Positions 381 through 3,884 of a DNA stretch of 10,154 bases are shown in pieces. The notes below the pieces were generated by a model. It did no database searches. It was not told the origin of the DNA and saw only the letters and a list, made by a program, of their open reading frames with translations. Location: UHGV virus genome UHGV-1550841. One strand, given 5' to 3'. The position numbers were made by a program, and so were the translations under genes. Position 1 is the stretch's first letter. Every line of letters starts with the position of its first letter. The stretch comes from a virus.

Positions 381-390
381 GTGACGGTAT
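381..390 (+). repeat. GTGACGGTAT 10-mer copy 1 (candidate integrase arm-type site)
   Basis: Exact 10-mer. Further exact copies at 603-612 (+), 838-847 (+), 928-937 (+) and 1181-1190 (-), plus a 9/10 copy at 633-642 (-). Confidence 0.4.
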
Positions 391-432
391 ATAAAACGGT
401 ACGGTGAAAAGCGGCTGTGATAAACTTGTTAT

Positions 433-469
433 CACTCAATTGGTTATGTCTATCGTAAATAATTGAGTG
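433..469. repeat. Perfect 9-bp inverted repeat CACTCAATT-N19-AATTGAGTG (candidate att core or protein-binding site)
   Basis: Arms at 433-441 and 461-469 are exact reverse complements. Lies between the lysis cassette and the integrase, flanked by GTGACGGTAT repeats. Confidence 0.35.
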
Positions 470-523
470 GGAATGATTAACAGCTAACTCATAGCAAATC
501 ATTTCTATTCAGATGTCAACTTA

Positions 524-555
524 ACCCTCTGTTTTTGCAGAGGGTTTTTGTTTTT
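524..555 (+). terminator. Rho-independent terminator downstream of the Rz/Rz1 cassette
   Basis: Perfect 8-bp stem ACCCTCTG (524-531) / CAGAGGGT (538-545), 6-nt loop, then TTTTTGTTTTT. Confidence 0.6.
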
Positions 556-602
556 ATGTATTCATTTCTATTCACTCTACACCATATTTTTTGGCGGTAC
601 AG

Positions 603-612
603 GTGACGGTAT
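603..612 (+). repeat. GTGACGGTAT 10-mer copy 2 (candidate integrase arm-type site)
   Basis: Exact 10-mer, 57 bp upstream of the integrase GTG start and abutting an operator-like palindrome. Confidence 0.4.
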
Positions 613-626
613 TACCTTAAAGGTAT
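612..626. promoter_or_regulatory. Operator-like palindrome TTACC-TTAAA-GGTAT (9/10 to TTACC-N5-GGTAA) upstream of int
   Basis: Overlaps a possible -10 (TATACT, 624-629) about 40 bp upstream of the integrase start. Confidence 0.3.
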
Positions 627-632
627 ACTCTC

Positions 633-642
633 ATACCGTCAT
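633..642 (-). repeat. ATGACGGTAT (9/10 copy of the GTGACGGTAT motif, inverted orientation)
   Basis: Plus strand reads ATACCGTCAT. Forms an inverted pair with the copy at 603-612. Confidence 0.3.
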
Positions 643-668
643 GAAAATGGTTTCTATACGGGTGAATT

Positions 669-1925
669 GTGCTTACCGATACAAAATTAAAAAACCTCAA
701 GCCACAGGACAAACTGTACAAAGTTTCCGATCGTGACGGGCTGTATGTGGCTGTGCTTACGTCAGGCACGGTCTCGTTTCGCTACGACTACCGTATCAAC
801 GGTCGCCGCGAAACGCTGGTAATCGGGCAGTATGGGCGTGACGGTATCAGTCTGGCAGAAGCGCGAGAAGAACTGATTGCTGCAAAGAAGCTGCTTAAAG
901 CAGGCCAGTCACCGGCTGCGGCTAAACGTGACGGTATCAAAAAGATTCGTGGTGCCGAGACGTTTGCGGTACATACCGACAGTTATATGAAACACGTCAT
1001 CCTGGCTGACAGTACCCGCGCAATGAAACAGGCGGTGATCGACCGTGACATACTTCCGGTTCTTGGCAATAAAATGATGGCTGAAATTACCACATCGATG
1101 GTTCGTGATTTGTGTGACCGGATTGTCGAACGCGGTGGCCGGGCAACAGCAGTGCAGGCCAGGGAGATCATCAGCAGCGTATACCGTCACGCCAATGACC
1201 GTGGTCATGGTTTGTTTAATCCTGCGGCTGACATTAAACCTTCGTCTATCGCCATATTTAAACCACGAGAGCGAACACTGACACCAGAAGAAATTGGCCT
1301 GTTCTTCCGCACGCTGGATGCCATTGGTGCTATGGGCACTATGAAAATGGCTTTAAAGCTGGTGCTTATCACTATGGTTCGTAAAGGCGAATTCACCAAC
1401 GCAACGTGGGATGAAATAGATTTTAAAAAATGGACATGGACAATTCCTTCAGACCGCATGAAGGGAAGCCGGGCGCACGTTATTTACCTGCCTAAACAGG
1501 CTCAGGATATATTGGTCGGGTTGCAGATGTGCGCTGGTGGAAGTGAATATCTGGTTCCTGGTCGTTACAATTTCCGGAAGCCATTATCTAATGCCGCGCT
1601 GAACTCTCTGATCGACAGAACGGTGAAAATAATAAATGAAGATGGTGAGCATATTCAGGGCTTCACCGTACACGATATGCGCCGTACAGCCAGTACGTTG
1701 TTGCATGAGGCTGGTTATCCTTCAGACTGGATTGAAAAGGCTCTGGCACATGAGCAGAAAGGTGTGCGCGCCGTATATAACAAAGCGGAATACGCCAGAC
1801 AGCGCGCCTACATGTTGCAGCAGTGGGCCGATATGATTGATTCCTGGATTAACGGGGAGCATACGGATCTGATTCCGTTCTCCCCGTCGAAGTTTGAGAG
1901 GTGGATGGAAGACAGTAATAAATAA
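669..1925 (+). CDS. int: Tyrosine site-specific integrase, P4-type (arm-binding N-terminal domain plus catalytic domain)
   Basis: 418 aa. N-terminus LTDTKLKNLKP...GLYVAV...SFRYDYR fits the P4-type integrase arm-binding domain. C-terminal region has the HxxR motif (VHDMRRTAST) and conserved Tyr region. GTG at 669 is the only start available (in-frame TGA at 663-665); SD is weak. Stop TAA 1923-1925. Confidence 0.9.
   Translation: MLTDTKLKNLKPQDKLYKVSDRDGLYVAVLTSGTVSFRYDYRINGRRETLVIGQYGRDGISLAEAREELIAAKKLLKAGQSPAAAKRDGIKKIRGAETFAVHTDSYMKHVILADSTRAMKQAVIDRDILPVLGNKMMAEITTSMVRDLCDRIVERGGRATAVQAREIISSVYRHANDRGHGLFNPAADIKPSSIAIFKPRERTLTPEEIGLFFRTLDAIGAMGTMKMALKLVLITMVRKGEFTNATWDEIDFKKWTWTIPSDRMKGSRAHVIYLPKQAQDILVGLQMCAGGSEYLVPGRYNFRKPLSNAALNSLIDRTVKIINEDGEHIQGFTVHDMRRTASTLLHEAGYPSDWIEKALAHEQKGVRAVYNKAEYARQRAYMLQQWADMIDSWINGEHTDLIPFSPSKFERWMEDSNK
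838..847 (+). repeat. GTGACGGTAT 10-mer copy 3, inside the integrase coding sequence
   Basis: Exact 10-mer; extended match GTGACGGTATCA shared with the copy at 928. Confidence 0.35.
928..937 (+). repeat. GTGACGGTAT 10-mer copy 4, inside the integrase coding sequence
   Basis: Exact 10-mer; extended 12-mer GTGACGGTATCA identical to the copy at 838. Confidence 0.35.
1181..1190 (-). repeat. GTGACGGTAT 10-mer copy 5 (inverted), inside the integrase coding sequence
   Basis: Plus strand reads ATACCGTCAC. It encodes different amino acids from the other in-gene copies, so the repeat is a DNA-level feature. Confidence 0.35.
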
Positions 1926-1927
1926 TT

Positions 1928-2587
1928 CTATCCTTCCTGGACTTTGGTAAGCGTCAGATTTCCGCAGAACACTGCGCCGGTGTCGATGTACATTTGGTTT
2001 GCATACACCAGTGGGTGATGTGCTGGCGTATGACCGAAGATGAACAAATCGGCACCGGTTATCTCCGAGACAATACCGTCCTGCGCGTCGCTAACCCGCT
2101 CACGATTCCATATCACCATTTCTTCCGGTACTGGCTTATCGAATGCGTATTCGTTGTGCGGGTAGTCTGCGTGGCAGATGACGACCTTCTTATTGCCGGT
2201 AACCAGTTCGATAATCATCGGGAGGTTGGCAACCTTTGGCAGAAGGTATTTGATTTGCACATCCTGCTCAGAATCAAGTTGGTGCCACCATCCACCGCCG
2301 TTTGACATCCAATGTCCGAAACTTCCGCCGTTGACCAGTGCATCCAGCATCATCTGCTCATGGTTGCCACGAACAGCTCGGAACCACGGCATAGTAATCA
2401 AATCCAGGCATTCGACGTTTTCAGCGCCGCGGTCAACAAGGTCACCAACGGAAATAAGTAAATCGCGCGCCGGGTCGAATGAAACTTTGTCGAGTTCGTT
2501 CATCAGCAGCGTGTAGCACCCATGCAGATCGCCGACGACGAAGATATTGCACCAGTCAGCGCCATTGATGCGTTGATATAGGTTCAT
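1928..2587 (-). CDS. Ser/Thr protein phosphatase, PP-lambda-like metallophosphoesterase
   Basis: Translation from ATG 2587 ([12 protein letters not shown]...) shows the three phosphoesterase signature motifs GDLHG, GDLVDRG and GNHE. The longer ORF start at 2707 is rejected because ATG 2587 overlaps the upstream gene stop (ATGA). Confidence 0.85.
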
Positions 2588-3234
2588 GCTGCACGCTCCC
2601 GCCCCTGGTTGTCTATTGGTGACACCGGAGCATTGCTGAATGCATTTGTTAATCCTCCAATATCCAACGCGTATCCAGGGTGTAGTTGCACTGCCGGGTC
2701 TTCGCACTGATTACCCCAAACATCGAAGCCATGAGACGTCTGGCGGGCGAACAGTTCAATGCGAGAAACATCGCCTAACAATTGCACAAGTTTTTCACGA
2801 ACGATATCTGGTTTTCTTGAATGCTCAAGCCGCGGTGCGGTAAATGACTGAACGATCCCTGCATTAATGCGCGTAGGTAGTTTTCCCTTTACCGCAAACA
2901 GGCAATCTTCACTATTGGCGCGAGTCATGTGCCCCATACCCATAACCAGTTTATCTGGTTGTCGACTACCACATTTTATCCACGTGAAGCCCTTCATGGT
3001 CATCAGACGGAATCCCCAGGCTTCAACAACTTTTAGTGCTTCGAGTGGTTGTGTTGGCACCCACCACATGGCCAACAGACAGTTTTCATCGGCCAAATCC
3101 CACACAGGAAGGCGGCAGATATCCAGCACACTCATAACCGGATATTTAAAACCGGCACCGCGATTACCATCTGCGGCTTTGTCCCGGTATACCCAGGGTG
3201 GATCTGCATAGATTAGTGTGTATTTCTTAGTCAT
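2584..3234 (-). CDS. MT-A70 family N6-adenine DNA methyltransferase (DPPW motif), orphan, no adjacent restriction gene
   Basis: Translation [14 protein letters not shown]... carries the DPPW catalytic motif near the N-terminus typical of MT-A70/phage adenine methyltransferases. ATG at 3234 is preceded by a G-rich SD-like sequence; the alternative GTG at 3246 is less likely. Stop overlaps the phosphatase start. Confidence 0.8.
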
Positions 3235-3635: not shown

Positions 3636-3884
3636 TCATGCAGCGTTGCTCACGGGACGATATACACGTTGCTGAACAGGAGGCTTTTTACCCTGGAACT
3701 CTGCCGGGCTTGCTGCCTGACGTTCATCAAGCCAACGCTCAACTTCATCACGGTTCCATGCGCAGCGTTTATCGGTGATATACCAGCGTTTAGGAAATTC
3801 CCCTGCGCGCTCCATACGGTCGATAGTGCTCCATGACAGTGGCACCACCGCCAGGAGTTCTTTCTTACCTAATGCACCTTTCAT
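3636..3884 (-). CDS. AlpA/Xis-like small DNA-binding protein (putative excisionase or prophage regulator)
   Basis: 82 aa. The segment LLAVVPLSWSTIDRMERAGEFPKRWYITDKRCAWNRDEVERWLDE matches the AlpA/excisionase-type winged-helix pattern. Good SD (AGAGGT) 5-6 nt upstream of ATG 3884. Confidence 0.65.
   Translation of the reverse strand: MKGALGKKELLAVVPLSWSTIDRMERAGEFPKRWYITDKRCAWNRDEVERWLDERQAASPAEFQGKKPPVQQRVYRPVSNAA

Follow-up and report, generated by a model that had tools for sequence, protein, structure and literature searches.

The 10,154-nucleotide stretch of UHGV virus genome UHGV-1550841 that we analysed (the window) carries a 10-mer, GTGACGGTAT, in repeated copies around and inside its integrase gene (int). 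We consider it probable that this repeat (unit nTGACGGTAT) is the arm-type binding site of the integrase encoded at 669-1925, an enzyme of the P4/SXT type that targets guaA. This reading is favoured because the sites flank the attachment core, because the motif switches together with the arm-binding domain of the integrase, and because synonymous positions of copies lying inside the gene are frozen. The repeat is a real feature under selection at the DNA level and most likely a set of arm-type sites with an unusual and conserved extension into the int open reading frame (ORF). The GenBank entry of phage epsilon15 already carries, as a prediction, both the repeat and the main interpretation given here. 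Added here are the synonymous-site and covariation evidence, the sites at 394, 591, 617, 963 and 973, the demotion of the copies at 1181 and 2073, and a correlation with the length of the spacer between guaA and int. A preliminary description of the window had offered arm-type sites as one possible role for the 10-mer; the comparative evidence supports this option well, with the integrase as the presumed binder.

Copies of the motif and the attachment core

All five exact copies of GTGACGGTAT reported in the preliminary description were found again (Table 1). When up to two mismatches are allowed, the window holds 19 matches, compared with 6.9 ± 2.6 in shuffled sequences (0 of 200 shuffles reached 19), and every match with no or one mismatch falls within 381-1190. 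The complete 39.1-kb genome of phage phiV10 likewise contains five exact copies, all within the homologous 810 bp. When eight phages (nucleotide identity down to 78%) were aligned and 80 integrase loci linked to guaA in other species were scanned, the conserved unit proved to be the 9-mer TGACGGTAT, the first base being free. Neither the 10-mer nor the 9-mer occurred in 50 kb sampled from the Escherichia coli chromosome, which speaks against the motif being a repeat of the host genome, one of the outcomes that the preliminary description had named as fatal to its proposal. Two near copies had also been described: the one at 633-642 (9/10) is borne out, whereas the one at 2073, an 8/10 match within a phosphatase gene, lacks comparative support and was set aside as a chance match. 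Beyond these, we found several degenerate copies (394-403, 591-600, 617-626 and 963-972) and, at 973-981, an inverted copy that is conserved and matches at 8/9.

Lysogen junctions, a check suggested at the outset, locate the crossover core. On the attL side, hundreds of E. coli genomes match the int side of the window from position 462 onward, under the end of guaA; on the attR side, matches to the Rz side stop at 478 in E. coli lysogens. The core is therefore 462-478. The same 17-mer, ATTGAGTGGGAATGATT, is given as the attP/attB sequence of phages ZX5, phiV10 and epsilon15 (PMC9782041). A tRNA-type attachment site was considered and rejected, the window being devoid of tRNA genes and the core being the 3' end of guaA. 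The core holds the final four guaA codons with the stop codon (IEWE*), and a strong terminator follows 45 bp further on, so that an integrated prophage would restore both the end of guaA and a guaA terminator. In the phage, the same terminator closes the late (Rz) operon, and in a lysogen it would terminate guaA transcription.

The motif is unrelated in sequence to the core and flanks it, with copies at 381 and 394 on one arm (P) and at 591-642 on the other (P'). The P-arm block GTGACGGTATATAAAACGGTA (381-402) is invariant in all eight aligned phages while its flanks diverge. On the P' arm, the position of the 591 site (+116 from the guaA stop codon) is occupied by an exact or near-exact TGACGGTAT in Klebsiella and Proteus relatives. 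The weak third P' site (617) was seen only in Klebsiella relatives among the mapped loci.

Selection on the copies within the integrase gene

The preliminary description argued for a DNA-level signal on the ground that the in-gene copies encode different peptides. This argument applies only to the copy at 1181: those at 838 and 928 share one reading frame and both encode R-D-G-I. The claim nevertheless stands for these two, which are frozen at synonymous positions. Among 16 int genes (59-100% amino-acid identity), 126 alignment columns hold a conserved amino acid with degenerate codons, and only 5 of them use a single codon throughout. Three of the five are D58 (GAC), G59 (GGT) and D88 (GAC), which are all the motif columns present in the 126-column set (hypergeometric p ~3e-5). 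At site 838, GAC and GGT are invariant in 16/16 sequences. Residue 57 is R, C, P, A, Y or S depending on lineage, yet the third base of its codon is T throughout, with the result that TGACGGTAT is preserved despite the amino-acid change; neighbouring codons vary freely. In epsilon15 (locus L001), codon 57 is Cys (TGT) where others have Arg (CGT), and the 10-mer is intact, the change lying just outside it. Aggregatibacter encodes P-D-G-I as CCG GAC GGC ATC, without the motif, so the protein sequence does not force the DNA motif.

Permuting synonymous codons within genes gave an expectation of 0.03-0.24 9-mers per gene, against 2-3 observed, and the total over 23 genes was 39 observed versus 1.7 expected. 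An unbiased scan for invariant nucleotides led to the same sites: the longest invariant run among 13 Enterobacteriaceae-type int genes is 838-849, the two longest in a wider set are 839-847 and 930-936, and a run at 973-980, reduced to 974-978 in the wider set, ranks high as well. At site 973-981, xAT ACC GAC is invariant, and the corresponding position of Proteus int (+304, counted from its start) holds an exact TGACGGTAT. The degenerate site at 963 has invariant codons xCG GTA in 16/16 Enterobacteriaceae-type rows (15 distinct genes), with flanking codons that vary; TTTGCGGTACA (963-973), immediately before the inverted 973 site, agrees with TTGGCGGTACA, the P' site at 591-601, at 10 of 11 positions. 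The motif codons at 838, 928 and 973 are invariant across Enterobacteriaceae, Pantoea, Pseudomonas, Proteus and Tolumonas, while flanking codons are free to change. We conclude from these alignments that the 838, 928 and 973 sites are under selection at the DNA level. The extension of about 500 bp into int proposed in the preliminary description is thereby reduced to a conserved reach of about 310 bp, to position 981; its suggestion that synonymous positions be compared in related phages turned out in favour of 838 and 928 and against 1181, and the extension to 1181 is not conserved.

Further copies within int vary by lineage. Proteus int genes (L020-L022) carry four copies within 145 bp of coding sequence (+169 to +313), at +169, +259, +285 (in a different frame, encoding G-T-V) and +304 (on the opposite strand). 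Exact inverted TGACGGTAT copies occur at six in-gene positions according to lineage (+304, +384, +512, +559, +649 and +774) and in 11 of the 23 genes, against about 0.46 expected; carriers include the int genes of the window, L001, L005, L006, L008, L011, L014, L020, L023 and L024. These scattered copies are suggestive, and only that, of the turnover of a distal inverted site. The 838 and 1181 copies belong to a 13-nt perfect inverted repeat, GGCGTGACGGTAT (835-847 / 1181-1193, 333 nt apart); the extension beyond the 10-mer is probably due to chance, since it is not kept in phage Tyrion. Internal duplication of the protein was examined as the origin of the two RDGI copies and rejected, the flanks having no similarity beyond CGTGACGGTATCA.

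Variation of the motif with integrase clade

All 80 scanned integrases are encoded downstream of guaA and form two groups according to their arm-binding domain. Upstream of int, loci of the DYR..RRET group (n = 20) carry GACGGTA (2.4-4.5 copies) and never CATGGTA, whereas those of the NY[SAT]..RQET group (n = 60) carry CATGGTA (2.5-5 copies), with GACGGTA present as one copy in one locus. In the NY[SAT]..RQET clade, CATGGTAT occupies the fixed positions -130 (inverted), -102 and -33, and sometimes -180 or -167. The GAC to CAT switch coincides with substitutions in the arm-binding domain. A motif that changes with this domain is the expected signature of arm-type sites, and the pattern fits it. 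The diversity required for this comparison came from the loci of the contig scan, close protein homologues being about 98-100% identical and uninformative on covariation. Integrases of the sister clade (L028-L090) are 53-55% identical and come from Alpha-, Beta- and Gammaproteobacteria; their genes contain no copies of the motif, and they are probably integrases of integrative and conjugative elements (ICEs) of the CMGI-3 type or of genomic islands.

Within the DYR clade, the arrangement of the P' sites relative to the guaA stop codon is largely shared. Apart from L027 and L082, which do not have it, every locus of the clade with a mapped guaA stop codon carries the +128 site, near-exact in some. 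Nearly all loci also have an inverted site, at +157 to +169, which is missing in BUCT554 and Pseudomonas lundensis and degenerate in Tyrion. With the exceptions just named, the tandem pair (+116 and +128) and the inverted site keep these distances in nearly all mapped loci of Klebsiella, Pantoea, P. lundensis, Proteus, Chromobacterium, Aquitalea, Cupriavidus and Tolumonas.

Spacer length and the presence of in-gene sites

Relatives in which int starts 297-299 bp past the guaA stop codon have extra direct sites at +193 and +263 and lack those corresponding to 838 and 928. The phiV10 clade, with an int start at +193, has the in-gene cluster and lacks the +193 and +263 sites. In-gene sites are also carried by most lineages whose int starts at +201 to +224 and are missing from the sister clade, whose spacer measures about 308 bp (about 115 bp longer). 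From this distribution we infer that the ORF encroached on the P' arm and that sites were then re-established within it. The in-gene sites would have been accommodated in segments of the arm-binding domain that tolerate substitution, namely the variable residue 57 and residues 87-90 at the end of the domain.

Proposed arrangement of the sites

If the motif is the arm-type site of the integrase, the N-terminal domain of the enzyme would dock on the P-arm sites 381 and 394 and on the P' cluster formed by 591, 603 and 617 (direct) and 633 (inverted), while its C-terminal domains would hold the core. Bends beside the core, of the type induced by integration host factor (IHF), would allow both arms to turn back and assemble into the intasome. 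The proximal P' cluster would also straddle the sole possible int promoter region, between 546 and 669. A conserved -10-like hexamer, TATACT, is located at 624-629, between the 603 and 633 sites and overlapping the 617 site; it reads TATAAT in epsilon15. Since this cluster would cover the promoter region, its occupancy by the integrase should shut off transcription of int. Such repression of its own promoter is known for IntS of KplE1 (CPS-53) and has reportedly been found for P4 Int (PMC2951348).

The sites at 838, 928 and 963 (direct) and 973 (inverted), in the first 310 bp of int, would form a second cluster with the same direct-direct-inverted layout as the first. Bound by the same integrase domain, they may serve as additional P'-arm sites or as auxiliary operators that act together with the proximal cluster through DNA loops of 235-370 bp, and in this clade they may stand in for the distal sites at +193 and +263 of relatives with long spacers. 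Their role could be that of distal arm sites, of auxiliary looping operators or of both, and they may serve recombination, autoregulation or the two together. A stronger proposal, which we put forward tentatively and consider somewhat more apt to fail than to hold, is that the first 310 bp of int constitute a second integrase-binding module that mirrors the P' cluster. Integrase bound at both clusters would then loop out its own promoter and 5' coding region, creating an auto-operator encoded within the gene itself, an attP/attL nucleoprotein complex exceeding 600 bp, or the two combined, and in-gene sites would arise repeatedly when the guaA-int spacer is short. What can be offered for such repeated origins are the extra copies in Proteus and in a betaproteobacterial element and the placement of the inverted copy among six positions.

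Objections and alternative explanations

Several observations weigh against the arm-type interpretation or parts of it. The covariation between motif and integrase reflects a single evolutionary split and is statistically weak; any clade-specific protein, such as a recombination directionality factor (RDF), would co-vary equally. A classical attP spans about 240-420 bp; the P and proximal P' sites are no more than about 170 bp from the core, and those in the gene, at +363 to +505 from the guaA stop codon, reach beyond that size. A scan of 340-1300 for consensus sigma-70 promoters found none, so that overlap of the sites with a promoter is suggested by the -10-like hexamer alone. At 1181, close relatives with the same V-Y-R-H residues use CGA or CGG and CAT, and the site drifts. 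Aggregatibacter has a short spacer (+201) and yet no in-gene sites, and Advenella, in which the guaA stop codon is unmapped, is also without them; compensation for a short spacer is thus not universal. Outside the primary epsilon15 and phiV10 genome papers, the literature searched contained no binding experiment for this integrase, and a full-text search for GTGACGGTAT returned no evident phage paper among the 10 of 44 matches listed.

The covariation argument thus leaves room for a different binder, and the preliminary description had itself named an AlpA/Xis-like protein. An AlpA-family gene is indeed present (3636-3884, minus strand), and RDFs bind repeated sites in att arms and, like TorI of KplE1, are able to repress int promoters (PMC2951348); clade covariation, moreover, cannot separate an integrase from a co-inherited RDF. 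The layout, however, suits an RDF less well than an integrase, with copies on both arms and in both orientations, spaced 12 to 250 bp apart. Characterised RDF sites, such as those of lambda Xis, are closely spaced tandem repeats on one arm. The TorI sites of KplE1 likewise show this one-arm tandem arrangement (PMC2951348). The motif switch, furthermore, coincides with substitutions in the arm-binding domain of the integrase, and a separate 13-bp repeat, TCATTTCTATTCA, would suit an RDF or IHF better. We therefore regard the AlpA-family protein as an unlikely binder of the 10-mer. Copies of a phage-wide or host-wide dispersed repeat without any link to recombination would be distributed quite differently: the E. 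coli sample contained none and the phiV10 copies are confined to the att-int region, which refutes this explanation at the sampled scale and leaves it a negligible probability; no observation spoke in its favour.

It is also conceivable that the intergenic copies alone are functional and that those within int are a by-product of protein conservation, codon preference and ancestry. The N-terminal 100 residues are highly conserved, CGT, GAC, GGT and ATC are preferred codons in E. coli, and the 1181 copy, with synonymous positions that drift among close relatives, behaves as this explanation predicts. The other copies do not: at 838, 928 and 973 the motif codons are invariant among freely varying flanking codons, residue 57 changes while the motif base stays, Aggregatibacter keeps PDGI without the motif, and permutation that preserves protein and codon usage leads one to expect only about 0.1 copies per gene. 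For 838, 928 and 973, these comparisons largely refute a by-product origin, and we judge it improbable overall. To much the same degree, we doubt that the copies serve as an RNA-level element, in which a 603-612/633-642 hairpin or pairing of 835-847 with 1181-1193 would control processing or translation of int mRNA. The predicted 603-642 hairpin (-16.1 kcal/mol, z = -2.7), the putative RNase III sites annotated there in the epsilon15 record and the 13-nt perfect inverted repeat 835-847 / 1181-1193 are in its favour. The hairpin is predicted in other relatives, but its stem is broken in Tyrion and BUCT554 without compensatory change, and the 1181 partner of the longer-range pairing is not conserved. 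The motif also occurs as direct repeats and on the P arm, upstream of the terminator and outside any int transcript. A search of Rfam gave no family match.

Gene layout and neighbouring features

Compared with phiV10-type Uetakevirus phages, the window shows 96-97% identity, and with epsilon15 about 84%; it represents the attP-int region of a phiV10/epsilon15-like Uetakevirus. The integrase comprises an arm-DNA-binding domain (PF13356, residues 2-87), a central and a catalytic domain, and its N-terminus matches the arm-binding domains of the HPI and HAI7 integrases (PDB 3JU0 and 3JTZ, E ~1e-13). From the core at 462-478, the order runs through the terminator (523-546) to int, with the AlpA gene on the opposite strand 1.7 kb away. 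The int gene hence adjoins the core, reads away from it and is separate from the RDF operon, an organisation typical of KplE1 IntS and P4 Int. On the minus strand 3' of int are genes for a metallophosphatase, an MT-A70 methylase, a PerC-like protein, the AlpA-family protein, RecT and a repressor. The first of these, a calcineurin-like Ser/Thr phosphatase gene (1928-2707, minus strand), follows int directly; phiV10 has a DUF1382 gene there. The same phosphatase-after-int arrangement is found in phages BP9 and PAS61, which points to a mosaic junction at the end of int.

Two further repeats lie close to the core. The 13-bp repeat TCATTTCTATTCA is present as perfect direct copies at 499-511 and 562-574, on either side of the terminator, in the interval from the core to the P' sites; the two are largely conserved among the eight aligned phages, and we regard it as a better candidate than the 10-mer for an AlpA-type RDF or IHF site. 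A 14-nt inverted repeat, CACTCAATTGGTTA / TAAATAATTGAGTG (433-446 / 456-469, 86% complementary), overlaps the left edge of the core and the IHF-like matches and is partly conserved among relatives; the epsilon15 record annotates IHF sites at positions homologous to the 430-468 cluster. Five E. coli chromosomes (NZ_CM142769.1, NZ_CP148463.1 and three others) contain an uninterrupted Rz-attP-int arrangement at 95% coverage, with three matching places per record, which suggests tandem or polylysogenic prophages at guaA.

Table 1. Features of the window; site assignments are predictions, and offsets are counted from the guaA stop codon.
Feature	Position	Strand	Remarks
Rz/DUF2514 gene	ends 351		Upstream of core
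Putative P-arm site, exact GTGACGGTAT	381-390	+	Invariant in 8 phage relatives, to 78% nucleotide identity
Putative second P-arm site, degenerate AAAACGGTAC (core ACGGTA)	394-403	+	13 bp after first
Three IHF-consensus-like matches, 1 mismatch each	430-468		Adjoining core; consensus match only
attP crossover core ATTGAGTGGGAATGATT	462-478	+	Last guaA codons and stop codon
Intrinsic terminator between core and int	523-546	+	Also annotated in phiV10 and epsilon15; kept in eight-phage alignment
Putative P'-arm site, degenerate TTGGCGGTAC	591-600	+	Tandem with 603 site, 12-bp step
Putative P'-arm site, exact GTGACGGTAT	603-612	+	+128
Putative weak P'-arm site TTAAAGGTAT	617-626	+	+142; ATTACGGTAT in Klebsiella phage BUCT711
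Putative P'-arm inverted site, 9/10, ATGACGGTAT	633-642	-	+157
Integrase gene int	669-1925	+	PF13356 E=4e-20 (aa 2-87), PF22022, PF00589
In-gene site 1, exact GTGACGGTAT	838-847	+	Codons R57-D58-G59-I60
In-gene site 2, exact GTGACGGTAT	928-937	+	Codons R87-D88-G89-I90
In-gene degenerate site TTTGCGGTAC	963-972	+	
In-gene inverted site TGTCGGTAT, 8/9	973-981	-	
In-gene inverted exact copy	1181-1190	-	Codons Y172-R173-H174; lineage-specific
8/10 copy AGGACGGTAT	2073-2082	-	Within phosphatase gene
AlpA-family protein, candidate excisionase (RDF)	3636-3884	-	PF05930 E=3e-5; phiV10p36 annotated likewise

Implications

The attP of phiV10/epsilon15-type phages may extend past the int start codon. Phages of this type serve as reporter and typing phages for O157 and Salmonella, and three conserved sites would be missing from minimal attP cassettes or from codon-optimised versions of int. 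The case would be one of overlapping codes, in which the most conserved nucleotides of a gene are the predicted binding sites for the domain that they encode. It would extend the idea of integrase autoregulation, drawn from KplE1 and P4, to sites inside the ORF, without defining a new class of system. If the copies are indeed arm-type sites, a change of TGACGGTAT to TCATGGTAT would abolish integrase binding.

Comparison with known systems

The closest precedent is epsilon15 itself (AY150271.2; Kropinski et al. 2007), whose record carries 'protein_bind: integrase' features at the homologues of 381, 603, 838 and 928. The 10-mer is the same, it flanks the same guaA core, and IHF sites and a terminator stand in matching places. 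The record is a sequence-based prediction and differs in being without the inverted copies (633, 973 and 1181) and the degenerate ones. The attP of phage lambda (P1, P2, P'1-P'3) is similar in that a heterobivalent tyrosine integrase recognises a short motif, unrelated to the core, on both arms, with tandem P' sites and IHF-type sites beside the core. Lambda attP, however, measures about 240 bp and lies outside int, whereas here conserved sites are found 360-500 bp from the core, inside int, and the arm-binding domain belongs to another Pfam family (PF13356).

In the KplE1 IntS/TorI and P4 Int/Vis systems, attL overlaps the int promoter and the integrase exerts negative autoregulation. The window resembles them in having int beside the core, read outward, with a predicted promoter of its own and uncoupled from the RDF gene, and in the position of putative arm sites at that promoter. 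The difference is that the four P' sites of KplE1 are upstream of the ATG in the construct described (PMC2951348), while a second cluster is located within the ORF here. The integrase falls with the guaA-targeting 'epsilon15 cluster' of IntSXT-type integrases, which includes CMGI-3 (Smyshlyaev et al. 2021, PMC8138268), and shares with it both the integrase family and the target at the 3' end of guaA. A large sister clade within this group nevertheless uses CATGGTAT, has a spacer about 115 bp longer and carries no in-gene sites. Overlap between recombination sites and the integrase coding sequence is also seen in Mx8 and SSV1, in which attP is within int, the crossover core is inside the gene and integration alters it. 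In the window, by contrast, only accessory sites would lie in the ORF, and the gene stays intact.

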